Positions 3,289-18,218 of a DNA stretch of 64,000 nucleotides are shown here, in pieces; the stretch's first letter is position 1, and the number at the start of each line of letters is the position of its first letter. Source of the DNA: a virus. The stretch spans positions 1 through 64,000 of the IMG/VR virus record IMGVR_UViG_3300034060_000702; one strand, given 5' to 3'. The notes under the pieces were generated by a model. It did not search any database. It was not told the DNA's origin and saw only the letters and a list, made by a program, of their open reading frames with translations. Made by a program: the position numbers and the translations under genes.

Positions 3289-4181
3289 TATCTACAAATT
3301 CTATTAAAGTTATTTACTAAATCCTTACTAACAAAGTTATTGTTTTTCCATAGCATTTCATACAAAAGTTCATTAAATACTGCCATTGCTTCAGCAAGAT
3401 CCTTTGCCATGTAATCATCTATTTCTGTTTGCGAATACACAGATCTTATTGCATTCACTTCACCCGCGCTGTATGTTCCAATCTTTTCAAATGTATTTAA
3501 CACAGGCTCATTAACCTCTAGATTATCATTAAACAAAGATGTTTGAGGACTAGCAAAGTTATTTTCCAATTCCTTAACTGCTATGATGTCTTCACTATTC
3601 CTAAAGTCAAATGATACCACAGAGGAATTATCTTGAACTAAACCACTATAACCCTTTGAAGAAAGAAACTTATAGAAGTTTAGGTTATTTTCTTTTCCTG
3701 CTATACTTTGATCATTTGGATTATATGTTAAACCCAACTTATTAAAGAATAAGTTTTGTAATACAGTGTATCCTTCTTTGTTTTGTTCTGTATCTAAAAA
3801 ATTAGCAGTAGATAAACCACCACTATTCTTATTAGATTCTTCAACAACTTTATAATGTTTTACATTGGTAGTAGTATCATAGTTTTCTGCATTATCAAGA
3901 ACTACTTTTTTTACATTGTAATCATCTTTAACCTTTTGAACTTTTACAAACAAATCTCTATTAATATCAAAAGTCCAATTACCTTTTCGAGATTTGTTTC
4001 TTTCAAACAACATCTTTCCTTGAGCTTTTACTTGATATGTTCTTTCAGCAATTTTTGTTTTGGTTTCATTGTATTCATCAAAGTCTTTTAGATTCAATAC
4101 TAAAAACTCTTCTTTATCAATGATACCATCCCTAGCCATTTCAGCTAGAGAACTATCTAATACACTACATACTGCACCCAT
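3288..4181 (-). CDS. Hypothetical protein (297 aa) in the cargo gene cluster
   Basis: ORF track; co-oriented and tightly packed between two giant genes; no recognisable motif. Confidence 0.75.
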   Translation of the reverse strand: MGAVCSVLDSSLAEMARDGIIDKEEFLVLNLKDFDEYNETKTKIAERTYQVKAQGKMLFERNKSRKGNWTFDINRDLFVKVQKVKDDYNVKKVVLDNAENYDTTTNVKHYKVVEESNKNSGGLSTANFLDTEQNKEGYTVLQNLFFNKLGLTYNPNDQSIAGKENNLNFYKFLSSKGYSGLVQDNSSVVSFDFRNSEDIIAVKELENNFASPQTSLFNDNLEVNEPVLNTFEKIGTYSAGEVNAIRSVYSQTEIDDYMAKDLAEAMAVFNELLYEMLWKNNNFVSKDLVNNFNRICR

Positions 4182-4193
4182 AATACTTACTTA

Positions 4194-7100
4194 TTAACAA
4201 CCAATTTTATCATTATCATACTTACTTTTTTCAGCACCAACTGTAATACTTTTAGGATCAATCGGAGCAGTTTTTGTTACCATTACTAATTTAGTAGTTG
4301 GTCTTGAAACCGCAACATATAATGCTTGATTTTTTGCTTTTGGTGTACCTAAATTTGTATTACCTAAAATGTTGTCAAGCATTACATAAGTATTGGTATA
4401 TGTAGAACCCTGTGCTTTATGTGCAGTAATTGCATAACCATATTGTAAATTACCAAATTCTTTTAACAAACCATAAGCCATTTGACCATCTGTTTTAAAT
4501 AAAGCAGCTACATCTTGTCGAAATTTATTTATTGATGAATTTGCAATAACAGGTATGTCAAATAAATTAACACCTTCTTCATTTATTAAATCTAAATATT
4601 CAACATCATATTTAAAAGATTGAGTTCTATTACCTTTAGCTTCAGAATAAACAGTTATATTAAAATTAACATCAACTTTTTTAGTATTACTAACAACTAT
4701 TAAATCTTCACCATTAGTAAAAACTGGAGATTCATCACCAAATGTATCATACGCCATCAATCTTTCTCCAGGCATAAACTGATTTTTAACAGCATCAAGA
4801 CCATACAAAGCATTTCTAACTTTCATATTCAAATTTAAAACACTTTGTCCACTTGGATTTTTTTCATTGTTAAATGTTATAATTTTAGCAAAATTAGGAT
4901 CATTGCTGTTTTTAACATCATCTACAAATTGATTTATAGCATTTGCTTCATTCTGTTCCCAAAGTAATTCGGAACCAGATACAGAATCTTTTGCATTAAC
5001 CATCATATCAGAAGTAATAACATTTACTTGTGGATCTTTACTTTTTACATTATCTGAAACAACAGTTCCAATTCCAATAATTGGAGATGTAGCTGCTTGT
5101 CGCATCTTTTCAGTTAGTAGGTAATGATTTGAATAACCAAATACTTTACTATCGGAACTTTGTCCAACTGGAGGAAGCTGTGCTCTATCTCCCATGTAAA
5201 TAATTTTAGCTCCTTTTTTCTTCCATTGATTGATTTCAGCAATCATATCATCTTTAAGCATAGACGATTCATCAATTATAACAAAGTCTGCTTTAAGCAT
5301 TGGAACCCATCCTAGTTTTCTTTTTTTTATATTTGGTTTAAATTCACCAGTTGCCTCATCTAATTTAATTGCTAAAGCTGCATCTAATGTTATGGTATTG
5401 ATTTTGTCTTTACTAAATTTTCTATCTCTATTTAAAGAATTATCCAACACTTTTTTTGCTTTGTGAGTAGGTCCAATTGCTAACACAGTACCTTTACTTT
5501 CTAATTCAGCAACAAGATTTTTAATAAGAGTAGTCTTACCTGTTCCTCCAGCACCTTCCAATACAAATTCAGACTCATTAGAACTAATGAAATCATACAG
5601 CTTATCAATAGCTTCACTTTGTCCTTGGTTAGCAAACACACCTGGAAATAACTCATATCTATTTACTTGAGGTTTATTACCAGAAATTGGTTCTACATTA
5701 ACAGGGGTAGGTTCAGTTCTAAATGGTTTACCATTTTGTGGATCTACATTTGGATTCTCATTGTATTTAGCTAATAGTTTGTTTTTATCTGCAGGTTTAC
5801 CTTTGTATCCAACAACATCAACACCTACACCATCTTTGATTACAATAGCATAAGGTTTACCATAGTATTGATAACTATCAGTAGTTGTTTGAGAAGTAGT
5901 TGTTTCTGATTTACTAATAACTTTAGGTGTATCGCCTGTGTTATCAATACCAATTTCAGCAAGTTTTGTATTAAGATATTCCCATATTTTTGGAGCAGTA
6001 TCTTTCATGTTAGAAATTTCACCTTTACCAAAAGGTTTTTCAGCACTAAATTTAACTCCTTTAAAATAACCTTCTCCAATAAAAGATTTTATTCTACGAA
6101 TTTCACGATCAATTTCTTTTTTAAACTCATCAAATTTTTCATCAGTCCATTGAGTTCTTTTGTCATCAACCATTGTTGTTATTGGAAATGCATTAGCCAA
6201 CCCTCTAATTACAGCTTGAGTTTTACCAGGAAATTTTTTATCTGTTCCATAAGTACTAGCATACCAACCAGTAGGTCCTACTAAATTAGGACCAGAAGTT
6301 CTAGCTGCATTATCTGTAAATAAATAAGCATACTCATTATCTTTTGTAACAGACTCTCTAGTAAATCTTTGCGATTCAGTTAAAGCTATTGCTGTTACAG
6401 GTCTGCTTACTAATTCAAATTCAATAGCATAAGGATAATTGTCAACATGGTTATCAGTTACAGATTTCACCCAACCTTCTTTTTCCCATGTAGCATCTTG
6501 ATATTCTTGTGTAAAAGGAACAACTTTAGTAATTCTAGTATAAGCTCTACCAGTTTTTTTATCAGTCATTCTTATTACCTTACCTACAAGATCTTCAATT
6601 TTAGAAAGATTATAGTCTTTCATCATTCTTTCTATATCAGTTTTAGCTCTAGTAGTTCTAGTTCTATCACCTGAAAGAATAAGTTGCATAGTTGATCTAT
6701 CTTTAAATTTAGATTGCATTTGTCTACCTCCATCTCCATCTTTAAAGTTTTGTTGAATAGGTGTTAATTCATCAGCTGCATCAAATTCATTAACACTAGT
6801 AGATGATTGAGTAGGTTGTGCAAATGTTTCTTCATATACCTCTTTAATAGCTTGTTTAGCAGCTGCTTCTTTTGCAGCACCTAAATATTCTTTTCTAGGT
6901 TTCCATTCACCAGTTTTTTTATCTTTTGTGTTATAATTTTCAATATCTCTTGAACCAACACCAGCAAAATTCTTAGTCAAAGTTGGTGTTTCTGTAACTT
7001 CAAAAGTATCTCCATTATATTTATACCAACCTTCAGTAACAATATCCCAAACATAAGTTGGTTTATTCATTTCTATACCAAGTTGTACAGCAGTATTAGT

Positions 7101-10100
7101 ACCTCCAAGAACAGCTGTTTTATCTGAAAATAGTTTAGCAACAGCAAATACAGCATCTGCATTAGCTACTTGATAATAATTTCTAACTTGTAGATTACCT
7201 TCTAAGGTATCAGGATATTTTTCTCCAAGTAATCTTTCTACTTCAGTTCTTGCAGTATCCATTTGTTCTTTAGTAAGAACTGTAGCTGTTACTTTAGCAT
7301 TTTTAAGTTTTTGAGAAAGGTTTGCATTACCTGCATCTTTATAATGCATATGTTTAGTAACTCCAAACTCTCTACCTATCATATCCCAAAAGGTATCTCC
7401 ACCATAAGCACCACCAGAATGATTAGTATAATCAGATGGATTAACACTAGTAGATAGTTGAGTAGTGGAACCTGCAGGTTTCTCAACAGCTCTTCCTACA
7501 GGATTAACATCCGGAGTATGTCTTAAAGTAATACTATATCTAATACCTGCCTGACCACTATTTTTTTCAATTCCATGTTTATATTTAATTTGGGAATCTT
7601 TACCCATTACTAATACATGTCCTTGCTTAGTAGGTATACCAACTTTCTCATTAGCATAGGGAGTGTTTGACATTCCTTCTAATCTAAATATTCTTTCAGC
7701 ACCAAGCGATAATGTAAGCACAGTTGGATTAATATTTTCTTTACCAACCAAGTTAGGTTCTGCATCAGTATGCATTCCTAAACCTTGCTCAAGACCTGTA
7801 TATCGATTAATTAAAGCAGTGTCAAAGTATCCTGGAATAACTCCCATTCTTTTTTCTAATTCTCTAACAGTTTTATCTAACCAAGATGGTAATGGTGCTG
7901 CTGCTTTTGTTATTGTAGAATATTTATATTCAATAGGACCAAAGTAAATTGATTTTGTATTTGCAAAATTTGGAATACCTTGTGCTGGATCAGCTAATAC
8001 TTTAGGAAACTCTCTATCCATGATTTCGAACAACTTGTCTGATTCAACTTTATTGAATACTTCTCCATCAAAAATTTCAGCTCCTGTTATTTCTTGAACT
8101 CTTTTAAATCCAGATAATGTTCCTGCACTAAGAAAACCTGAAGATGTAGTAAGTACTGCATTTTTTTGTTGAGGACTTGTTGCAACAGCATTAATTTGTA
8201 CAAGACTTTTTCTTGCAGTCATCAATGCTCTAGCATACATGTTGTTTAATTTATTTGAAACAGTTCCTTGCAGTAATGCTGCATCCTGTGTATTTACTAA
8301 TAAATTTTTAAAATCTTTATCTTTTTCAATAACTTTTCCAACAACATATTTATAAGCAGACTCAATTGCAACATTGTCAATTACATTTGCTCTAATAAAG
8401 TCAGACCAAGTAGCATTCGGTAAAGATTTATGTGCTTGATATTTTTCTTCTAAACCATATTTATCTGAAAGTTGTTTTGATACTAACTGGTCAATAGAAA
8501 CTTTTACAACTTCATTTTTATTTGATGAAGAAAGTAATGAGTCATCTTTAATAGAAAAAGTACTTTGTGTATTATACAATCCAGATACAGCCATTGAATC
8601 AACTTTAGACATAGCATAATACAAACCATTACCACTTAACATTGGATGTTTTTTATAACCCAATGATTCCAAATGTTCAATGATAAGTTCATTAGCACCT
8701 GGTTTCATTTCAATATTAAATGTAAGATTGTTGTCATGATTTAATCCATCTAAATGTTGTTTGTACTTTTTAAAGTATTCTTTAACAAATTTTGGATCAG
8801 TTATTTCTGAAGAAGAATTAATGTAAGCAGTAGAATAAAGACCTAAATCAGCATTGATAGCAGTTTCACCAAGTCCAGTAAAATAGTCAAACTGTCTAGT
8901 AGTATCTTCTGTTTCACCAACAGCTGAATATGGCATAATTATAGCACTATTTGCATATCTAGCCATTGCAATCTCTATCTTTCTAACACCTTCTAAATAA
9001 GATAAATCAAATTTATTTGTATATTGAATAGTATTATCAAAATAAGAATCATTCTCATAAGAGCCTCCTCTTTTATTTTGCAATTGTCTTTTACTATAGT
9101 TTTCATGATAATTAAGAGCAGTGTATAAATTAAGAACAGAATAATTTACAGCTTCACCAGATCCTATTTTATTTAAACTTTCTAATATTGAATCATATTG
9201 ATTACCGATTACATTTGAAATGTGAGCAGGATCAATAATTTCAGTTACATTAAATTGACCAGCAGTTCTAATTCCAGATTGCAACACAGCAAAGTGATCA
9301 AACTGTTCGAACAATTCTTGAACCTCTGGAATTTCACCATAAGCTTTAAGAATTTCCAATTCCTGTCTGTATATTTTTGAATAACCTGTTTCTTTAATAT
9401 TTGCTAATGAGATATTATGAGAATACTTATTATAGTTATGTCTAATGTCTTCTAAGAAATTAAATTTTCCTATTAGTTCTCCATGCTCACTTGCAACTTC
9501 TAGCAATCTTTTAGCATAAGAAAATGGACCATGCATTAATGTTTCTCTATTTCCAGAAGCAAGTAATGCTTTAGATTCTAAAGCCGCTGTTAAAATTAAA
9601 TCTTCATACTCTTCAGCAGAAATTTCTTTACCTTCAATTGTTTCTTCATTAATACCTACATCACTCAAAGCTTTTTTAGCCAAAATGTAATGCATGCTAT
9701 CTTTAGGAAGATCCATAAAATCTATTTTTCCATATTCAGCTAAGAATTTTAATGCAGCATTTTTAGAACCAAATTTATGAGGCAATGCATTAAGAACATT
9801 AAATCCAAAAGCCAACTCATTTAAGAAAGTTGGATTGTATCTTAACTCACCATCTTTGTAATCATACTTATCTACAGACTCATCTTCAACTAAAGCAATA
9901 TCATTATAAGTATTATCAGTAATTCGATTGCTTTCATTTTGATATAAGTACCAAATAAAATCTTCTTGGAATTGGTTAATGTTATCTTCAGGAAAAATAC
10001 CAGCTTTAAAAGCAATATCTGATTTTTTATCAGCAATAGCAGATAAAGCTTTATTATTTTTTAATGCAGAGAAATTAGAAAATAATTTTAAAATCAATTT

Positions 10101-13100
10101 AGAAGAAGCAAACTTACCAACAATAGTAGAATCAACTCTTTTTAAAATGTCAACAGGCAATGCTGGATTTGACTTAACTAAAGAATCTAATTTTTTTTGT
10201 TTATCTCTAACTTCATTTAACTTGCTTGATGCTTTTGTATCAAATGTTGTAGCTGTTGTTAAACTTGTTATTTGATTTGCAATATTTTCATAAGCAATAA
10301 ATTTATTTAATAAATCAAATTGAACTTCATCTGATATTGGAATAGCTTTTCCAGGTTCAGCAAAAGAATTTTTAATAGCCGCAGTATTAATTGGAGAATT
10401 ATCATTGATTGATAACTTCATAACTTTACCTAAGTTTTGTACTAAATCAACATTAGTATAAAGTTCTTTTGTTTTTGAGTCTATATCCAAACCATTAACT
10501 ACAGATTTATAAGCATCAATATCTTCATACTTAATTAAAGCATCAAAAGTATTTCTATCAAAAGTTGCATTTTGATTTAATACATGTAATGCACCTTGTT
10601 GAACTCTTTTAGCTTCTAAGTAGTTTCGAATAGCAGGTACAGATACAAAATTAACCGCATCTTCTACAGGAACACCCGCCATAAATAAATACAACAATGT
10701 TGGAGTTGCTTCTTTGTTACCTTGGATATTAAAAATCCAACCACCTTTTGCAACATCCACCCAACCATTAATCATTTGTCCTAAAATATCAGGAATGTAT
10801 TCACCAGCTTTGTTTTTTAATGCAGCTAAGTCAATTACTTTTTTTCCATTAATAATTTTAGAATTAAAACTTGGAAAGTGTAAGTTGTAATTTTTATATG
10901 AAAATGCTAAATCTTTTTCTATTTTACCTACATTTTTAGCATCTTCTTTTAGAGCAGCAATAATCTCATTATAATCTTCTAATGTCAAGATGTTTGAATC
11001 TATGTTAGTGTACATACCCATTCGAGTAAACATAGAGAAATACTTGTTTATTACAGCACCAATTCCTAATGTATCTTTACCAACAGAGTTTTCAATTTGT
11101 TTGTTTCTATTGTAAGATGGATCAAAAATCATAGAAGATGAAATCTTAGTTCTAATAGTTTCTTTATCATGAACAGATTGATATTTATTAAATGGAGAAA
11201 CATGAGATTCTAATTCTTTTGCAATTCCATCTACCAAGTTTGTATCATTTGGTCTTACTAAATCGGCATAGTTATCTTCTCTTTCAAGTCTTTCAACTAT
11301 AACATCAATAAGATTATTCTCTAAACCTTTAATCGATTGACCATCTTTTTTAATTTGCAAGTCTGCTAATTCAGATTTCATTGCTTCAAGTTCTCCAAAC
11401 AAAGCAGACTTTTGTCCTAAAGCATCATACACAGAATCTATAATTGCATTTAAAGCTGCAACTTCTTTTTCATTTTCAGCAAGTGCCTTTTTTTCTTTGG
11501 TTGTTAATTTACCTGAAGTAGTTTTAATTGCTTCTTTAAGTAGTTTTCTATTTTCTTTTATTTCAGATAAGACTTGTTTTTGCTCTAATGTATCTTGATT
11601 TGCTTCGATGTAATCAAACACTTCTTTTCTTTTATTAGAAATGTTTTCTTTTAATGTAGAGATCTTAGAGTTTAACTCATTGATGTCTTCTTTAGGAAGA
11701 GCTTTGATCTTCTTAACTTCACCATTGTATAGTCCAAGATTGGCCATCATTGTGAATAATTTATCCACATCATAATCGGCTCCAGACTTAGCAACAATTT
11801 CAGAAGGTAGAATAATAACATTACCTGCAATTTTTGGTAAGAATGAATGTATCTCCATAAATTCAACAGAGTTCATCGCTTGACCAGGTATCCTACAGGT
11901 AGTCATGATAAATAAATCCATGTTTTCTTTTTTCCAAACAGGATCAACCATCAAAGCATTCAATTTATCTAAAGTTGAATCATAATCTAATGTTTTTACT
12001 TTAGTTCCATCTTTACTTGTTTTAGTAATGTATGTAGCAATAGACTTACCATCTTTACCTTTTATGTATAAAAGCTTTTCAAAGTCACCTTGCAATGCAA
12101 TTTTAACTTGCATCGCTTTGATCTTTCCATCTTTTCTATAGTAACTTCTTAAACCATTAGTACCATACTCTAATTGCTCTTCAGTAGTAGCTTTTTTCCA
12201 TTGTGAACCTTTTTTCTCACTCATAGTAGAAGCCATCTGAATAAGACCTTCACCATTAACTTTCATCTTAGTTAATCTTTTATCAATCAAAGACACAAGC
12301 ATTTTAGATACTTGTCCTTCAGTTAATGCAAGAGAGATGTCATTTTTAAGAGCACTGTTGTTAAATAAGAAATCAATTTGAGCATCATCAATTTCACTTC
12401 TTGTCAACTCACTTCTAATTAAATTAGCAAGTTTTTCAGAACTTCTTGAGATGTCAGCTTCTTCAGTAATACCAAGTTCATTAAACAACTCTTGTTTTTT
12501 AAACTCAACTATGTCTTCTATTGTTTTTTCATACTTAACTAACCACTGATAGTCATTAGACTTTAACTTTTCAGTTTCAGACATTTCCTCCCATTTACTT
12601 TGAAAATCTTTTTTATCAAACTCTTGCAATTCAAACATTGCAGAAACATCTTTAGGAACCCCATTATCCATTAATCCAGCATACAAGATTGCTCTCATTT
12701 GAGTAGGTAATGTAATCTTACCTTTATACTCATTATGTATCTTGATTTGGTTTTTCAAATACTTAACATGAATAATGTTTGGTGTAAATTTGAAAGTAGG
12801 ATCTGTAGTAGTTTCTCTAGTTTCTTTATTGTAGTAATCATCATTAGGTGATTCTGATTCAGAATTAGATACAGATGTAAGTTTAGAACCAGATGCAAAA
12901 GTCATATAGTCAATCCCCTGCTCCATCATTTTATCATGAAGATCTTCTAACTTAGTTCCTTTAATCATGTTAGGAATTAATGGAATAAGATTGAATTTAT
13001 GAAAAGCCATACCAGGTAAACCATCAGTTTTAACTGGACCAAAATGTTGTAACTTCATTGATTCAAAGAACTCATTTACTCTAGTCTGATCAAATGCAAC

Positions 13101-16100
13101 TCCATTAACAATGTTGTTATACATTGCTTCTTTAACTGGCGACCATAAACCTTGAGATATAGAAAGCATTCTGTAGAAGTCAAAAGAAATAAATCCTTGA
13201 CCATCTGCTTCATTCATATTATTGTAAGGACCTAATGAATTTTTGATGTCTTCTGCTAACTCATCTAAGTAAATAGAATTAACTTTATGGTCATTGATAA
13301 TTGCAGTTACAACTGTACCATCATATGACCTAAATTCTTTTTCAGGTTTTATATTTCCAGACTTAACTCTTGATTGAGCATAGTTTCTACTTTTATTATT
13401 TTCAACAACATCTCCACTTTTAAATGGAAGTGTATTTAATGTTTGTAACATTGATGTGTCATGTCTAAAACCTTCACCTGTTGAAATAATACCTGCAATC
13501 CTTTTATGGAAATCTTCTTTGCTAACATCATATAATGCTGGATCACCTAAAAACATTGTAGTAAAATTCAAATAGTTTAAGAATTGATTTCTTTCAAACA
13601 TTGAAATCAATATCTCTTTAGATTCATCAACAGAAAGTTTTGTTTTAGCATTACCGCTAATCTCTGTTCGAACTCCTTCTGCTAAATAAAAAGTATCTTT
13701 TTTATTCTTTAAAGTGTTATCAGTTTTTTCTTTAAAATACTGGTTAATCTCTTTTGTAATAACAGATTTAGATTTTTCAACTTCTTTTAAAACTTCATCA
13801 AAGTTAGTTGAATTGATTTCTTTTAGTTTACCCTTAGTTTCATTTGTAAGCAAAGCATCAAAGATAAAAAACTCTTGACCTCTTGCTTTGTAATTCTTAT
13901 CTATGTTACCTGTCGCGCTTTTTAAAGTATTAATCCTAACTATTTCTGCAGCAATATATTTCTTTAAAGCAGAATACATTTTATTATTTGTATCTGCCTG
14001 TGTCTTGATTGCTTTAGCATCAGTAACATCAAATATAGGTTTAGCATTATTTAAACCAAAGTGAAATGAAGATGACTTATCAGCCATCCTTGGAGCTTCT
14101 GCTTTACCATAGTAACTTAAATAAACATCAGTAATAAACTTTGAATTTTCATCCAAAGACATATTGCTTAAACCTCTTTCAACTAATGATTCATATTCAT
14201 TTTCACCAATAAGTTTTTGAAAGTATTTAGTACCAGAAAAGTTTTCATATTCTATTGCTACATTTCCTTGCTTGGTACTTTGTTTCTTACCATTTTCATC
14301 AAACAATTCATTCAACCATGTATTTGCTTTTTTAAATGGATCAAGATTACCATCTAAGTGTTCAAAAGCATTGTCCTTAGTTAACTCTTGTAATGTTTGC
14401 GCATTATTAATACCATTGATTTGATGAGTAATAGAACTATTTAAAACCAATTCCGAAGCTGTTTCACCTTCAGCATTAGTACCCATAAATGAATTATAGT
14501 TGTTAGAGTATTTGAACTCAACTTCCTGCAATGTCTTATAAAAACCACCAAGCCCTTTTACTTTTTCATAAGTTTCATTACCCTGCTCATCAGTATTTTT
14601 AACACTGTAATCTTTAATTAAATCAGTAATACTATTGATCCTTTTATCAAAGTCTGTTGTTTTTATAGAAGAATCATTTCTTAATCTATTAATAAAATCA
14701 TCAAGCAATCCACCAGGAATTCCAGAGTCTTTATCGCCTTTAAATAATACTTTATTTACTTCAGCAGTATCAGTAAGATTAACACCAATAGCATTAAACT
14801 TTTGTGCAATACTTGCTTTTGGATTTGCTTCTAACCACTCTAATGCTTTTTTAACATTAAGATATGGACCATGAATATCTACTTCAATATTTGGACTTAA
14901 TTCAAATGCAGTATTCCAGTTATTTCTAACTTGAGATGTCGAACTTGAAACAGAACCATATTTAAGATTAATTCCAATTTCTTTACCATCATTTACTCTT
15001 TCAAACAAAAGTTGTTTAAGAGGCATATTTGATTTACTGAAAGTCTGGAAAAATTTACTCCATAATATTTGAGAACCTAAATGTATTGGGAGTTCCCCAT
15101 TTACCAAAGGCATTCTTTTAAGAACTTCTTGAATGATTGGATCTTTAGAATCTCTCAATACAGCAAACATTGTATCTGGATTTGCAGATGACATTGTTTG
15201 TTTAGCAACTATCGATAATACTTTTACTTTATTGCTTAATAGATGTACACCCAAAGCATTTGTTACCTTCTCTCCTTTTTCATTAAAATCAGGAACAGTA
15301 CTTAACAACATTAATATTTCTTTGTCCGCATATTCCTCTAAAGAAATATCTTTTCTTTCTTTAAATGGATCTGTTTCATCTCTTTCAGTATCTTCTTCTG
15401 CAATACTCTTCAACCCTTGTTGAGTAATAAATAACCCAGAAGAAATATGAGCACCAATGACACCAGTATTAGCACCAGTTTCACTAACATTTTTTTCAAT
15501 ATCTTCTAAGTTACCAAACTCTGCAATAGAAAAAGTTAATGCTTCAACTTGTTTTGCAACTTGAGCAATCTTCATTTTTTGTGCAGCATCTGGATTACTA
15601 ACCTTAGATAAAGATTCTTGAATTTTTAATTGATTTTCTTTTATCTCAATCAGTTTAAGTTTAGCATGTTTGTACAATGGTGTGATGTCATCAAGTGTAG
15701 TAATTTTCATATTACCATTCTTGATTTTTTCAGAGTATGCTTCATTTACCAATGTATTAACTGTATCTACAATTAATTTACTTTGAGCTGCATCTAACTT
15801 ACCATTCTTAGGATCACTAAATGCAGTAATAGAAGCATTCATTCTACCCCAAAACATATTAGCTTCAGGATTGTATTTAGTAAAATCAACTTTGTTATCA
15901 ACTAAGTCTTTGAAGTATTTATCAGTAAGTGTTTTTCTCTTAAAGATTTTTGTAATAGCATCAAGTAAATTCTTAAAGAATTTTTGAAGCATGTTACCTT
16001 TAGGAGAAATCTTATTTGTTGCATAAGCTCTAAACTTTTCCGCTAAGAATTCCTCTACAGCTTTATCATTCTTGAAATTCTCATTTGGGTATGATTTTTT

Positions 16101-18218
16101 AACTTCAAAGTAAAGTTTATTCTTTTGTTCTTTAGTCAATATACCTTGTGTAAAAGCATGCCATGCTTCATGGTATATCAATGTATTATTAGAACCTTTG
16201 TATAATGTTATACCACTTGTAAACCATTGTGCTAATGCATGTGGATGTTTCTTATCACTAAAATCTAAATCCAATTCACTTTTCATGTCATGAGCTTTAA
16301 ACCAACTTAGTGCAGCAGCTTCTGCTTTTTCAGTAACAGTTTCTAATTCAATTGTATTTGATGCAAGTACATCATCATCAGCATAATCATCAAACTCTTC
16401 AAATGTTGGAGGAGTTGGTTTAATATCTTCCGCAGGTGCAACTTCATCAGCAGTTTCAACCTCAACTTCTTTTTCAGCAGTTACAGGAACAGCAGTGCTA
16501 ACTGAAAAACCAATTCGAGGATGATACAATCTTAATTCATTAGCGGTACTTGTTTCAGCAAGAGTGTAACTATTATTCATAATATGTGCATTATGAGTAA
16601 TAGGTGTAAGAACTAAAGCATTACCTTCCATTCTAAAAGTATTTCCAGCTTTAATCTTAAAAGAGAAATTAGGTTTTCCTACAGTATGAAGTTTACCACT
16701 AGCTGTTCTAAATAAATCATTTTTAGATTTAGCTTCAGCAATATCAGTAACAATATTTTTCTTTTCTGTTTTTCCTGTATATTCTTTTTTCTGTACTGAT
16801 AATTTTGTAAAATGATTAGTCAATGCTTCTGCTAAACCTTCATCAAATAACTTAAATGCTTTATCAACAATTATAATTTTACCATCTGGTTTAAATTTAA
16901 TTGGTGAATCTGAAGCAACATTTACATACTTTTTAAACAAATCCATTCTTTGTTCAGGAGTCTGCACAGCATCATCAACAGTAAGTTCAGGATTAGTAAG
17001 TAATTCAATTAAAGATTTTACAATATCTGGACTTGTATCTAATGAAGATGGATAAAGAGAAACAGGAGTTGTATGTAAAGTATGACTAGTTAATGCATAA
17101 AACTGAAACAATAGTTTTCCATTTTCATTATGTTCTTCCTTTGTTATAACTTCAAATTGATTGTAATCTTTTACACTAGTTATTTTAGTTTCTTTACCTG
17201 AATCTTGATTTATGTAACCAAAATTAGAATTTTCAAGATTGACATCCAATAAGAAACCTTCTGCTTTATTTTGGTTAGCTTTCTTATTAATGTCATTTAA
17301 AATCTGTAGTTCATTTGCTAATTGCTCAAAAGCCATTCGCATAGCTTTACCAGGTTCTAAATCTTTATTGTTAAATTCAATAGCTCTTGCTAATTTTTCT
17401 TGAACTTTTCTAATTCTTAAATTAGCATCTGTAGCCTTAAATCCTTTTTGTTCATTAAAAGGTTTTTTAAAATCATATCCTTCAAATAAAGCATCTGGAT
17501 TATTTGTATATGTAGAAAATATAAAAACCTTACCTTCTTTAGATATGATTTTTCCATCTTTATCAGTCATTAAAAAAACTAATGCTTCAGGACTAGTAAC
17601 AGAATCTCCAACAAGATTTCTTTCTAATTCTAAGCCAGCACTTTCAATTAATTTTCTTGCAGCACCAAGTTTAATAGCTAATACTTTATGTTCAGCATTT
17701 GCCATAATATCAGTTAACACTTCTCTAACAAAAGCAAATGCTTCTGCTTTACTTGGATCTACTGTTCTTACCTCTCCTGTAAACTCTGGAGTTTGGTTTG
17801 TTAAAACTTCGACATGTGATGGATTGAACTTAGAAAAATCTACAAAATTTTCTTCTTCAGTTTCAATTGGATTTTCTTCAACATCAATTGTATCTACAAT
17901 TAATTTTTGATAACCTTTTATTAAATCACTAACAGCTTTTGTGCTGTTCATAGCAGTCATAGTTTTTGCTAAGTCTGCCTCAATGTTAAGACCTGGAAAA
18001 CTTCCATTTAAAGCAATAGGAAGAAACAACATATGCTGTACTACCAAATCAATATTTGATTGATTGTTAGCATCACCAGACTTCATTAAAGCAGCATTGT
18101 ACATTCTCTTGTACAACTGATCTTTTGATTGAATGGTTTTAGTGTTTATTAATTTTGCTTGAGATTTAAAAAGTTTTACAAAATCTTTTATTGACTGTTC
18201 ATTAATACATACATTCAT
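4194..18218 (-). CDS. Virion-packaged single-chain DNA-dependent RNA polymerase polyprotein (phi14:2 gp66-like), fused to zincin, AlkB, SLOG, ASCH, macro-like and SF1B helicase domains
   Basis: RNAP motifs: EADGQG, TCRIPGQ, catalytic GADYDVDK (~11760-11783), GKDTLGIGA, NGWVDVAK. Zincin HEAWH at 16158-16172. AlkB HTD...H...RYSITLR. Helicase GAGGTGKT, IIDESSM, GDRAQLPPV, TAHKAQGSTY, YVAVSR. Confidence 0.9.
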   Translation of the reverse strand: MNVCINEQSIKDFVKLFKSQAKLINTKTIQSKDQLYKRMYNAALMKSGDANNQSNIDLVVQHMLFLPIALNGSFPGLNIEADLAKTMTAMNSTKAVSDLIKGYQKLIVDTIDVEENPIETEEENFVDFSKFNPSHVEVLTNQTPEFTGEVRTVDPSKAEAFAFVREVLTDIMANAEHKVLAIKLGAARKLIESAGLELERNLVGDSVTSPEALVFLMTDKDGKIISKEGKVFIFSTYTNNPDALFEGYDFKKPFNEQKGFKATDANLRIRKVQEKLARAIEFNNKDLEPGKAMRMAFEQLANELQILNDINKKANQNKAEGFLLDVNLENSNFGYINQDSGKETKITSVKDYNQFEVITKEEHNENGKLLFQFYALTSHTLHTTPVSLYPSSLDTSPDIVKSLIELLTNPELTVDDAVQTPEQRMDLFKKYVNVASDSPIKFKPDGKIIIVDKAFKLFDEGLAEALTNHFTKLSVQKKEYTGKTEKKNIVTDIAEAKSKNDLFRTASGKLHTVGKPNFSFKIKAGNTFRMEGNALVLTPITHNAHIMNNSYTLAETSTANELRLYHPRIGFSVSTAVPVTAEKEVEVETADEVAPAEDIKPTPPTFEEFDDYADDDVLASNTIELETVTEKAEAAALSWFKAHDMKSELDLDFSDKKHPHALAQWFTSGITLYKGSNNTLIYHEAWHAFTQGILTKEQKNKLYFEVKKSYPNENFKNDKAVEEFLAEKFRAYATNKISPKGNMLQKFFKNLLDAITKIFKRKTLTDKYFKDLVDNKVDFTKYNPEANMFWGRMNASITAFSDPKNGKLDAAQSKLIVDTVNTLVNEAYSEKIKNGNMKITTLDDITPLYKHAKLKLIEIKENQLKIQESLSKVSNPDAAQKMKIAQVAKQVEALTFSIAEFGNLEDIEKNVSETGANTGVIGAHISSGLFITQQGLKSIAEEDTERDETDPFKERKDISLEEYADKEILMLLSTVPDFNEKGEKVTNALGVHLLSNKVKVLSIVAKQTMSSANPDTMFAVLRDSKDPIIQEVLKRMPLVNGELPIHLGSQILWSKFFQTFSKSNMPLKQLLFERVNDGKEIGINLKYGSVSSSTSQVRNNWNTAFELSPNIEVDIHGPYLNVKKALEWLEANPKASIAQKFNAIGVNLTDTAEVNKVLFKGDKDSGIPGGLLDDFINRLRNDSSIKTTDFDKRINSITDLIKDYSVKNTDEQGNETYEKVKGLGGFYKTLQEVEFKYSNNYNSFMGTNAEGETASELVLNSSITHQINGINNAQTLQELTKDNAFEHLDGNLDPFKKANTWLNELFDENGKKQSTKQGNVAIEYENFSGTKYFQKLIGENEYESLVERGLSNMSLDENSKFITDVYLSYYGKAEAPRMADKSSSFHFGLNNAKPIFDVTDAKAIKTQADTNNKMYSALKKYIAAEIVRINTLKSATGNIDKNYKARGQEFFIFDALLTNETKGKLKEINSTNFDEVLKEVEKSKSVITKEINQYFKEKTDNTLKNKKDTFYLAEGVRTEISGNAKTKLSVDESKEILISMFERNQFLNYLNFTTMFLGDPALYDVSKEDFHKRIAGIISTGEGFRHDTSMLQTLNTLPFKSGDVVENNKSRNYAQSRVKSGNIKPEKEFRSYDGTVVTAIINDHKVNSIYLDELAEDIKNSLGPYNNMNEADGQGFISFDFYRMLSISQGLWSPVKEAMYNNIVNGVAFDQTRVNEFFESMKLQHFGPVKTDGLPGMAFHKFNLIPLIPNMIKGTKLEDLHDKMMEQGIDYMTFASGSKLTSVSNSESESPNDDYYNKETRETTTDPTFKFTPNIIHVKYLKNQIKIHNEYKGKITLPTQMRAILYAGLMDNGVPKDVSAMFELQEFDKKDFQSKWEEMSETEKLKSNDYQWLVKYEKTIEDIVEFKKQELFNELGITEEADISRSSEKLANLIRSELTRSEIDDAQIDFLFNNSALKNDISLALTEGQVSKMLVSLIDKRLTKMKVNGEGLIQMASTMSEKKGSQWKKATTEEQLEYGTNGLRSYYRKDGKIKAMQVKIALQGDFEKLLYIKGKDGKSIATYITKTSKDGTKVKTLDYDSTLDKLNALMVDPVWKKENMDLFIMTTCRIPGQAMNSVEFMEIHSFLPKIAGNVIILPSEIVAKSGADYDVDKLFTMMANLGLYNGEVKKIKALPKEDINELNSKISTLKENISNKRKEVFDYIEANQDTLEQKQVLSEIKENRKLLKEAIKTTSGKLTTKEKKALAENEKEVAALNAIIDSVYDALGQKSALFGELEAMKSELADLQIKKDGQSIKGLENNLIDVIVERLEREDNYADLVRPNDTNLVDGIAKELESHVSPFNKYQSVHDKETIRTKISSSMIFDPSYNRNKQIENSVGKDTLGIGAVINKYFSMFTRMGMYTNIDSNILTLEDYNEIIAALKEDAKNVGKIEKDLAFSYKNYNLHFPSFNSKIINGKKVIDLAALKNKAGEYIPDILGQMINGWVDVAKGGWIFNIQGNKEATPTLLYLFMAGVPVEDAVNFVSVPAIRNYLEAKRVQQGALHVLNQNATFDRNTFDALIKYEDIDAYKSVVNGLDIDSKTKELYTNVDLVQNLGKVMKLSINDNSPINTAAIKNSFAEPGKAIPISDEVQFDLLNKFIAYENIANQITSLTTATTFDTKASSKLNEVRDKQKKLDSLVKSNPALPVDILKRVDSTIVGKFASSKLILKLFSNFSALKNNKALSAIADKKSDIAFKAGIFPEDNINQFQEDFIWYLYQNESNRITDNTYNDIALVEDESVDKYDYKDGELRYNPTFLNELAFGFNVLNALPHKFGSKNAALKFLAEYGKIDFMDLPKDSMHYILAKKALSDVGINEETIEGKEISAEEYEDLILTAALESKALLASGNRETLMHGPFSYAKRLLEVASEHGELIGKFNFLEDIRHNYNKYSHNISLANIKETGYSKIYRQELEILKAYGEIPEVQELFEQFDHFAVLQSGIRTAGQFNVTEIIDPAHISNVIGNQYDSILESLNKIGSGEAVNYSVLNLYTALNYHENYSKRQLQNKRGGSYENDSYFDNTIQYTNKFDLSYLEGVRKIEIAMARYANSAIIMPYSAVGETEDTTRQFDYFTGLGETAINADLGLYSTAYINSSSEITDPKFVKEYFKKYKQHLDGLNHDNNLTFNIEMKPGANELIIEHLESLGYKKHPMLSGNGLYYAMSKVDSMAVSGLYNTQSTFSIKDDSLLSSSNKNEVVKVSIDQLVSKQLSDKYGLEEKYQAHKSLPNATWSDFIRANVIDNVAIESAYKYVVGKVIEKDKDFKNLLVNTQDAALLQGTVSNKLNNMYARALMTARKSLVQINAVATSPQQKNAVLTTSSGFLSAGTLSGFKRVQEITGAEIFDGEVFNKVESDKLFEIMDREFPKVLADPAQGIPNFANTKSIYFGPIEYKYSTITKAAAPLPSWLDKTVRELEKRMGVIPGYFDTALINRYTGLEQGLGMHTDAEPNLVGKENINPTVLTLSLGAERIFRLEGMSNTPYANEKVGIPTKQGHVLVMGKDSQIKYKHGIEKNSGQAGIRYSITLRHTPDVNPVGRAVEKPAGSTTQLSTSVNPSDYTNHSGGAYGGDTFWDMIGREFGVTKHMHYKDAGNANLSQKLKNAKVTATVLTKEQMDTARTEVERLLGEKYPDTLEGNLQVRNYYQVANADAVFAVAKLFSDKTAVLGGTNTAVQLGIEMNKPTYVWDIVTEGWYKYNGDTFEVTETPTLTKNFAGVGSRDIENYNTKDKKTGEWKPRKEYLGAAKEAAAKQAIKEVYEETFAQPTQSSTSVNEFDAADELTPIQQNFKDGDGGRQMQSKFKDRSTMQLILSGDRTRTTRAKTDIERMMKDYNLSKIEDLVGKVIRMTDKKTGRAYTRITKVVPFTQEYQDATWEKEGWVKSVTDNHVDNYPYAIEFELVSRPVTAIALTESQRFTRESVTKDNEYAYLFTDNAARTSGPNLVGPTGWYASTYGTDKKFPGKTQAVIRGLANAFPITTMVDDKRTQWTDEKFDEFKKEIDREIRRIKSFIGEGYFKGVKFSAEKPFGKGEISNMKDTAPKIWEYLNTKLAEIGIDNTGDTPKVISKSETTTSQTTTDSYQYYGKPYAIVIKDGVGVDVVGYKGKPADKNKLLAKYNENPNVDPQNGKPFRTEPTPVNVEPISGNKPQVNRYELFPGVFANQGQSEAIDKLYDFISSNESEFVLEGAGGTGKTTLIKNLVAELESKGTVLAIGPTHKAKKVLDNSLNRDRKFSKDKINTITLDAALAIKLDEATGEFKPNIKKRKLGWVPMLKADFVIIDESSMLKDDMIAEINQWKKKGAKIIYMGDRAQLPPVGQSSDSKVFGYSNHYLLTEKMRQAATSPIIGIGTVVSDNVKSKDPQVNVITSDMMVNAKDSVSGSELLWEQNEANAINQFVDDVKNSNDPNFAKIITFNNEKNPSGQSVLNLNMKVRNALYGLDAVKNQFMPGERLMAYDTFGDESPVFTNGEDLIVVSNTKKVDVNFNITVYSEAKGNRTQSFKYDVEYLDLINEEGVNLFDIPVIANSSINKFRQDVAALFKTDGQMAYGLLKEFGNLQYGYAITAHKAQGSTYTNTYVMLDNILGNTNLGTPKAKNQALYVAVSRPTTKLVMVTKTAPIDPKSITVGAEKSKYDNDKIGC
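6789..6814. repeat. 26-bp direct repeat, copy 1 (encodes linker TQSSTSVN)
   Basis: attaacactagtagatgattgagtag; 24/26 identical to 7440-7465. Confidence 0.85.
7440..7465. repeat. 26-bp direct repeat, copy 2 (encodes linker TQLSTSVN)
   Basis: attaacactagtagatagttgagtag; 24/26 identical to 6789-6814. Confidence 0.85.

Follow-up and report, generated by a model that had tools for sequence, protein, structure and literature searches.

The repeat pair and its host gene

The stretch of DNA analyzed here (the window) comprises the first 64,000 nucleotides of IMG/VR virus record IMGVR_UViG_3300034060_000702, a record of 82,460 bp. It carries on its minus strand one giant open reading frame (ORF) of 4674 amino acids (aa), predicted to encode a crAss-like virion RNA polymerase (RNAP), or polyvalent protein, followed by a C-terminal array of cargo domains. 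The element in question lies within this array as a 26-nt repeat, ATTAACACTAGTAGATGATTGAGTAG, at positions 6789–6814, with another copy containing two mismatches (24/26 identical) at positions 7440–7465, so that the two copies bracket a SLOG domain.

The repeat search and shuffles confirmed the pair as the original prediction had described it, including the coordinates, the identity, the shared reading frame and the spacing of 651 bp, or 217 codons; the palindrome ACTAGT was also present inside the repeat. Similarity between the copies extended to 35 nt at 86% identity. No match was found in any of 100 shuffles, no other copies occurred in the window when up to three mismatches were allowed, and an exact search of the whole record returned the same two copies only. 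A chance repeat was ruled out by the shuffles and by the lack of further copies in the window. On the coding (minus) strand, the first copy (7440–7465) reads ACT CAA CTA TCT ACT AGT GTT AAT (TQLSTSVN, aa 3586–3593) and the second (6789–6814) ACT CAA TCA TCT ACT AGT GTT AAT (TQSSTSVN, aa 3803–3810). The two mismatches therefore exchange CTA (Leu) for TCA (Ser), while the other seven codons are identical between the copies, as had been claimed for the synonymous positions. Given the codon usage of the giant gene, two copies of the peptide that had arisen independently would match in all seven codons with a probability of about 0.006. An independent contig from a lake sample (X2, record 6, 6479–7874) covered both copies with no differences, and the arrangement is therefore not an assembly artefact of this record.

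Structural modeling placed the two copies at domain boundaries. In an AlphaFold2 model of aa 3567–3945, built on a 21-row alignment, pLDDT was above 90 over aa 3594–3800 and below 50 at both repeat copies. Structural alignment (VIA-align) delimited a SLOG fold at aa 3588–3803, with the best match to the MoCo-carrier-like protein 3imk (Z 12.6, 150 of 158 residues aligned, rmsd 3.7) and further SLOG matches to DprA (Z 7.1, 6.7, and 6.5), YpsA (6.5), MCP (6.1) and LOG (5.0). Foldseek alone gave a weak result for this module (E 0.03) and a PDB sequence search with it returned nothing useful. The SLOG label and the bracketing by the repeats are confirmed because the well-modeled domain aligns to SLOG structures while both copies fall in regions of low pLDDT, and the model thus suggests that both lie in disordered linkers flanking the fold. 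The boundary between AlkB and SLOG that had been predicted for the first copy was upheld (the Pfam AlkB match ends at aa 3566), and so was that between SLOG and the next module for the second copy, although the ‘ASCH’ label given to that next module could not be verified.

Occurrence and conservation of the element

Across the wider collection, the element consists of the core ACT CAA (CCA/TCA/CTA) TCT ACT AGT GTT, encoding TQ[P/S/L]STSV, and measures 21–27 bp with its flanks, which are usually nCT before the core (T at position -1 in 95% of copies) and rAA behind it. Conservation ends sharply, with the information content falling within 3 nt on either side. The 18 fixed bases, ACTCAA-NNN-TCTACTAGTGTT, were found in ~90 copies in 70 IMG/VR contigs. 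A search of 596 Gb of bacterial and archaeal genomes gave two matches, both in unrelated proteins, which we take to be the linker of a 2-oxoacid dehydrogenase E2 (Cloacibacterium) and a repeat protein (Gracilibacillus); these look like chance matches and were rejected as true elements. None of the GenBank phages searched with the element by blastn carried it, and only partial matches at chance level were obtained (E ~4), including one of 17 nt in Chryseobacterium phage MA9V-1. Megablast against GenBank phages gave no match, and no relatives were found with a 601-aa AlkB-SLOG-ASCH-like query. In the translated gut crAss-like genomes cr130_1 and cr113_1, the SLOG module was present and the element absent. 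The habitat is known for the window phage only, since the runs that contain it are lake-water metagenomes. Taken together, the sequences indicate that a large group of uncultured crAss-like phages shares the element, nucleotide for nucleotide, in the cargo-domain array of a predicted giant virion protein.

A search for TQxSTSV in crAss-like relatives, suggested with the original prediction as a check against domain boundaries, showed that the element recurs at module edges and in the same frame. In 119 homologous giant proteins, the pattern TQ[PSLAT]S[TS] occurred 42 times, versus 3.6 expected from shuffles, and was found at recurring edges, namely before the start of SLOG (NHSGG), after its end (DVYxNTF), after AIEFEVV and after LLMEVRDEL. 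All copies of the element but one were in frame as TQxSTSV in long ORFs, mostly in the last 100–1500 aa, and in all 22 cases the distance between copies of one gene was a multiple of three (396–975 nt). Arrays comprised two copies in the window, two to three in 14 contigs and up to seven per gene in contig L052, with cassettes of 130–325 aa between the copies, many of them without a known family. The cassette array that had been proposed is thus borne out as an array of repeated sites, while its integron-like nature is not, as no recombinase was found among the ORFs scanned in the 82-kb record and neither copy forms an attC-like hairpin.

Contig L052 (6132–9540) contains one giant ORF with six copies of the relaxed pattern, five of them exact and one with ACC for ACT, and an additional copy with one mismatch (TQSSTIV). 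These split the C-terminal part into cassettes of 144–325 aa, which, read from the peptide, include AlkB-like, ‘VFVFGSN...HGLGAAK’ and NADAR-like modules; all six copies use TCA. Modules of the window were also found next to the element elsewhere. The ASCH-like module (aa 3811–3938) follows it in L009 and L023 at 72–76% identity, and the DUF7831 module (68% identical) begins right after it in L007, L027, L033, L037, L042, and L066. Two contigs carried the element near the start of an ORF. In L057 (minus strand), the element at offset 12440 of the reverse-complemented contig corresponds to residue 40 of a small 246-aa ORF and precedes the common ‘KEGVxELFESNPELA’ module; in L026 the element is at residue 78 of a 1900-aa ORF. 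Both may be free-standing ‘orphan’ cassettes that possibly act as donors.

The element joins many different modules. The backbones of the element-bearing giant ORFs had aa identities of 21–55% (median 32%), and of 23–33% to the window, while the cassettes in common with the window were 56–76% identical. The 91 usable instances combined 71 upstream with 49 downstream module clusters in 83 combinations, a single downstream module being found behind nine different upstream modules. Among 95 pairs with the same downstream module and unrelated upstream modules, nucleotide identity was ~0.3 up to position -3, 0.84 and 0.97 at positions -2 and -1, and 0.86–0.95 directly after the element; 15 reverse pairs, with the same upstream and unrelated downstream modules, had the mirror pattern. 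Homology between contigs therefore starts or stops no more than 3 nt from the element. A DNA-identical 21-mer amid unrelated flanks in dozens of combinations, with homology ending at its edges, implies that the element was the end-point or site of many independent recombinations. Identical junction combinations were recovered from independent metagenomes in six pairs of contigs (L019/L036, L033/L037, L049/L059, L010/L062, L045/L068, and L041/L069), which argues against assembly chimeras.

Module replacement at the element was also found in the closest relatives of the window gene. P0007 was 84.5% identical over aa 1–3593, lost similarity exactly at the end of the first copy and resumed at aa 4104, with one unrelated 131-aa module (RKTYSG...NFDKLI) in place of aa 3594–4103. 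P0003 was 83.5% identical over aa 1938–3806, lost similarity inside the second copy and carried the same foreign module from aa 3807, before resuming at aa 4104 with 94% identity. The replacement modules were 131–140 aa long. These two relatives, which differ in domain content, thus lose similarity at one or the other of the two copies, the outcome on which the earlier claim of recombination sites for in-frame insertion and swapping of domains had been made to depend; that claim is supported by these replacements and by the breakpoints within 3 nt of the element, but no deleted or excised form was seen in assembled contigs. At the joints of P0003 and P0007 themselves, the elements were decayed (TQPSVN, GQTSVV) or absent, and the same foreign module is flanked by intact elements in L063, L019, L036, and L052. 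A similar picture was obtained within the window (5910–6404), where neither the joint between the ASCH-like and DUF7831 modules (…ELVSRP/VTAIALTESQRF…) nor that between DUF7831 and the helicase region (…GDTPKVISKSETTTSQTTTDS…) has the element. Relatives such as L040, L033, P0027, and P0035 carry an intact element at the equivalent places, and the two joints of the window look like decayed or deleted junctions.

The conservation of the element was at the level of DNA, as had been predicted. In the 70 loci, 88 of 91 TQxSTSV peptides used the same six fixed codons, whereas ~1.7% would be expected from codon usage, and 18 of 21 copies were still exact when the one copy by which each locus had been ascertained was left out. 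Convergence of the peptide through codon bias was ruled out by these figures and by that for the window pair. With the third positions of the Thr and Gln codons left free, the whole collection yielded only ~6 extra copies; freeing those of the Ser, Thr, Ser, and Val codons gave, in the part of the collection that was scanned, 24 exact copies and no convincing variant within the family. Homologous flanking modules had a synonymous codon identity of 0.72–0.80. The three forms of the variable middle codon, CCA, TCA, and CTA (P/S/L), are single C-to-T neighbors and do not encode chemically similar residues. Copies with a single mismatch had 13 non-synonymous and three synonymous changes, a synonymous share of 19% compared to 26% under neutrality (p = 0.78) and to 56% in homologous flanking modules (Fisher p = 0.004). 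The TQxSTSV peptide is therefore under no detectable selection. These patterns indicate that the shared object is the DNA and that TQxSTSV is probably just a disordered Thr/Gln/Pro/Ser linker.

Unique copies numbered ~78 exact, 16 with one change, 10 with two and four with three. The extra copies decayed in a roughly Poisson-like manner, at about one change per 18 nt, and the element copies were several-fold less diverged than the neutral sites of the modules that they join. The variable codon agreed within contigs in 28 of 33 pairs (shuffle mean 16, p = 0.001), which suggests that the copies of one genome evolve in concert. Once refreshing has ceased, copies appear to decay neutrally.

Interpretation of the junctions

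Because breakpoints fall at the element and its codon phase is constant, it is best read, with moderate confidence, as a DNA-level short-homology junction for the in-frame exchange of effector-domain cassettes. Since the codon phase does not vary between copies, a crossover within the element preserves the reading frame. Between co-infecting genomes, such a crossover would swap or insert everything downstream of one copy or between two copies, whereas between two copies of one genome it would lead to the loss or duplication of a cassette. In this way, entire effector domains (AlkB, SLOG, DUF7831, NADAR-like, helicase, and dozens of unknowns) could be reshuffled as cassettes. Recombination at short homologies or annealing (strand annealing, template switching), and no dedicated enzyme, would carry out the exchange, which is presumably still ongoing; live copies would be kept identical by repeated crossover or gene conversion. 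In the window, the SLOG cassette lies between two intact copies, and the neighboring junctions no longer have one. The data are accounted for no less well by ordinary short-homology recombination than by the integron-like system that had been proposed.

Several observations weigh against a short-homology junction. In a sample chosen by the SLOG module, only about three of 28 junctions had an intact or near-intact element and the others were decayed or unrelated linkers, so that most junctions manage without it; the element is not obligatory, since many junctions of relatives lack it or have decayed copies. Most loci were found through the element itself, which inflates the counts of exact copies; the extra copies within the same loci and the relaxed-pattern scans provide less biased estimates, and the SLOG-anchored DNA scan yielded only 17 loci. 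The statistics on flanking modules and the other pairwise statistics use non-independent pairs. A length of 21–27 bp is near the lower limit for homology-dependent recombination. Selection for ‘shufflability’ would be second-order and does not by itself explain the uniformity of the intact copies. Finally, no recombinant was caught in the act. The assembled contigs of four lake runs, in which rare variants are invisible, contained across the region neither the precise 651-bp deletion nor the excised circle named with the original prediction as things to look for, and no swap. Some odd joints and loose ends were present (joints skipping 626 or 627 nt in X2, one skipping 409 nt in X5, and ends left loose at 6792, 6814, and 7465), each supported by ~23 nt on one side. 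That length corresponds to the element itself, and these joints and ends therefore probably stem from other element-carrying phages.

The main alternatives differ in what they take the element to be. It could be a passive scar, i.e., a piece of linker copied along with a few successful cassettes in past illegitimate recombination, which marks old joints and promotes nothing. The Poisson-like decay of the extra copies, the neutral ratio of synonymous to non-synonymous changes, the decayed copies (TQPSVN, GQTSVV) at the same joints in the closest relatives and the lack of an intact copy at most SLOG junctions are all consistent with such a scar. It is nevertheless unlikely, because a DNA-identical 21-mer next to 71 or more unrelated upstream and 49 or more unrelated downstream modules, with homology ending at both edges, would require many independent crossovers ending at or inside the element; furthermore, a scar would not be expected to be several-fold less diverged than the neutral sites of the modules it joins, or to be concordant in its variable codon within genomes. 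At the other extreme, a dedicated site-specific system, in which a phage nuclease or recombinase recognizes the 21–27-bp element and perhaps its ACTAGT core, would be an in-ORF, protein-domain analogue of the integron operating between co-infecting phages. The sharp edges of the conserved block, the near-invariance of intact copies despite backbones of ~30% identity, the palindromic core and the arrays of up to seven sites would all fit, as would a homing-endonuclease-like match and an exonuclease gene in the rest of the genome. Against it, no integrase, serine recombinase or transposase was found in the window, where all genes are structural, or in the remaining 18 kb, of which the ten largest ORFs were scanned (the record covers 69% of the genome), and neither of the two features expected of an integron-like system, the recombinase sought elsewhere in the genome and an attC-like hairpin, was recovered. 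DNA folds of both copies with 20-nt flanks gave z-scores of -0.05 and -0.78, the element has no inverted-repeat arms beyond the 6-bp palindrome, and ACTAGT is neither avoided nor enriched in the window (12 seen versus 19 ± 4.5 expected). As no excised or deleted form was present in the lake contigs either, a dedicated enzyme is considered quite unlikely. The two nuclease-like genes, the only ones seen in the 82-kb record, are a 142-aa ORF (L180:10748–11176), which matched a ‘NAD synthetase’ PHROG (E 2e-19) and, secondarily and weakly, the homing endonuclease phrog_7363 (E 2e-4), and an exonuclease (L180:1885–2724; phrog_298).

The two other alternatives are less probable again. TQ/xSTSV could be a protease site that frees the cargo domains after packaging or ejection, through the protein’s own HExxH region or a host enzyme, with DNA identity as a by-product. 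The motif lies in exposed inter-domain linkers, HEAWH is present at aa 683–687, and autoproteolytic release of domains by a zincin-like MPTase has been predicted for polyvalent proteins (Iyer et al., 2017; PMC5512222). This is improbable given that the peptide is under no purifying selection (13 non-synonymous versus three synonymous changes being the neutral ratio), that P, S, and L at the variable residue reflect C-to-T neighbors and not similar chemistry, and that the synonymous sites, which a peptide signal would not need, are frozen. In addition, close relatives have in-frame deletions within the motif, the HExxH region has no peptidase profile match in Pfam or PHROGs, and no cargo-protein processing is reported in the work on crAss001 virions (PMC10172136). 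Mosaicism could also be inflated by assemblers that fuse unrelated contigs at a shared short repeat. The element is indeed a repeat common to co-occurring phages, a Logan contig starts at 6813–6814 in X6 and X8, and the loose ends at 6792, 6814, and 7465 occur in X2, X5, and X8. An artefact of this kind is very improbable, as the same junction combinations occur in independent metagenomes, a contig from an independent sample spans both window junctions without a difference, and the element itself could not be produced by assembly. Its 21–27 nt are also shorter than the final k-mers of common assemblers.

Cargo domains and comparison with known systems

The features of the giant gene are listed in Table 1. 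The assignment of the backbone to the crAss-like RNAPs was based on the motif DYDVD at aa 2148–2152, which corresponds to the DxDxD motif of the two-barrel catalytic site, and on tblastn matches of aa 1950–2350 to the ‘putative RNAP catalytic subunit’ or ‘RNA polymerase’ of crAss-like phages, which were weak and local (27–46% identity, E 1e-6 to 5e-8). Together with the neighborhood of structural genes, this homology suggests that the giant protein may be carried in the virion and reach the host cell. With AlkB, SLOG, DUF7831, and an SF1B helicase behind an RNAP-like backbone, it combines several diverse effector domains in one phage polypeptide, the mark of polyvalent proteins.

Table 1. Features of the giant gene, in window coordinates
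Feature	Position	Strand	Residues (aa)	Basis and remarks
Host gene, giant ORF	4194..18218	-	4674 in total	crAss-like virion RNA polymerase backbone (predicted) and C-terminal cargo-domain array
AlkB-type 2OG-Fe(II) oxygenase (2OG-FeII_Oxy_2)	7521..7934	-	3429–3566	Pfam PF13532, 59.3 bits versus cut-off 31.2; phrog_21963
Junction element copy 1	7443..7463	-	3586–3592	ACTCAA-CTA-TCTACTAGTGTT, TQLSTSV; AlkB/SLOG boundary; 26-nt version 7440–7465
SLOG (MoCo-carrier / DprA / YpsA-like) cassette	6816..7439	-	3594–3801	PHROG 768 DprA-like, E 3.5e-8; AlphaFold2 and structural alignment; bracketed by both element copies
Junction element copy 2	6792..6812	-	3803–3809	ACTCAA-TCA-TCTACTAGTGTT, TQSSTSV; SLOG/next-module boundary; 26-nt version 6789–6814
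128-aa module, earlier labelled ASCH	6405..6788	-	3811–3938	Family not verified; weak Atlas lead only
DUF7831 module	5970..6371	-	3950–4083	Pfam PF25176, 36.5 bits scanned alone; joins preceding module without element
Block of SLOG, ASCH-like and DUF7831 modules	5910..7439	-	3594–4103	Replaced by one unrelated 131-aa module in P0007
Dda/PIF1-like SF1B helicase, C-terminal	4233..5633	-	4196–4662	phrog_325, E 7e-73; Pfam AAA_30, AAA_19

The module labelled ASCH gave no match in Pfam, PHROGs or PDB sequence searches. Its single lead was a weak one in the Atlas (score 0.87), to a cluster with PF04266 in 33% of its members, and the AlphaFold2 model was poor there (pLDDT 40–60). In the N-terminal part of the giant protein, HEAWH (HExxH; aa 683–687, window 16158–16172) might belong to a zincin-like MPTase, a domain characteristic of polyvalent proteins, but aa 560–900 gave no Pfam or PHROG peptidase match. 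The SLOG module was 53% identical to that of the gut crAss-like phage cr130_1, in an alignment covering exactly aa 3595–3801. It was also 44% identical to a segment in the annotated virion RNA polymerase of the N4-like Klebsiella phage Pylas and matched proteins of the jumbo phages Atu_ph07 and Cr30, which implies that the same cargo domain travels on unrelated virion polymerases.

A full-text literature search for the TQxSTSV peptide and the DNA motif retrieved nothing relevant. By analogy, the closest functional counterparts would be the junctions of polymorphic toxins and the linker sequences of Botstein’s modular theory. In polymorphic toxins, the C-terminal toxin domains follow conserved motifs (CdiA-CT after VENN, Rhs-CT after PxxxxDPxGL), and orphan CT/immunity modules occur. 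As in the giant genes, a conserved sequence marks the point at which effectors are swapped in frame, by homologous recombination and in an arms race. Polymorphic toxins, however, have one junction per protein, hundreds of bp of upstream homology and motifs conserved as peptides for processing or delivery, whereas here there are up to seven junctions per protein, identity over 21–27 bp only and no peptide-level selection. In Botstein’s theory, short conserved ‘boundary/linker sequences’ at the borders of gene modules in lambdoid phages are thought to guide exchange during co-infection. These lie between genes, while the junctions described here are inside one reading frame, keep the codon phase and delimit domains. 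Integrons use the tyrosine recombinase IntI, attC hairpin sites of 57–141 bp and cassettes that are whole genes. The arrays resemble those of integron cassettes in that a repeated site bounds each exchangeable unit, but no recombinase and no hairpin were found and the units are in-frame domains. The element differs from these analogues in being multi-copy, intragenic, only 21–27 bp long and free of peptide-level selection.

Polyvalent proteins have been described as mosaic architectures of effector domains, including fusions with N4/crAss-type virion RNA polymerases (Iyer, Burroughs, Anand, de Souza, and Aravind, 2017; PMC5512222). The giant protein is similar to them in stringing together domains such as AlkB, SLOG/DprA-like and helicase, and in being highly mosaic. 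In the set of that paper, the zincin-like MPTase is the commonest hub domain, found in ~36% of cases and not obligatory, whereas the HExxH motif of the giant protein has no match to a zincin MPTase profile. The word ‘linker’ is absent from the paper, and the passages retrieved from it contain no conserved junction sequence or DNA-level mechanism of mosaicism.

The origin of combinatorial architectures in polyvalent and virion-injected giant proteins has so far been unexplained, and the element offers a testable answer for one large group of phages. With a universal junction that keeps the codon phase, phages with polymerase backbones only ~30% identical could trade domains for anti-defence and host takeover as cassettes. 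The element could also serve as a simple tag by which the limits of unknown cargo domains are recognized, and as a natural design rule for in-frame domain swaps.

The giant protein further resembles the virion RNAP and cargo proteins of other crAss-like phages (PhicrAss001 gp47/49/50, PMC10172136; the gut Suoliviridae cr130_1 and cr113_1) in its size, its position beside structural genes and its two-barrel DxDxD motif. The gut relatives cr130_1 and cr113_1 differ in that they lack the element and, apparently, in their genetic code. Their homologous giant genes (L004:778–18183 and L005:2848–15834) contain 74 and 73 in-frame TAG codons, respectively, and end in TAA, and therefore appear to read TAG as sense, while the window gene has no in-frame stop. 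The SLOG module is near the C-terminus in cr130_1, cr113_1, and cr272_1 too. In P0004 and P0006, SLOG, ASCH-like, and AlkB modules 54–57% identical to those of the window are found near the N-terminus (aa 700–1330), before the polymerase backbone, indicating that cassette arrays can sit at either end of the protein.

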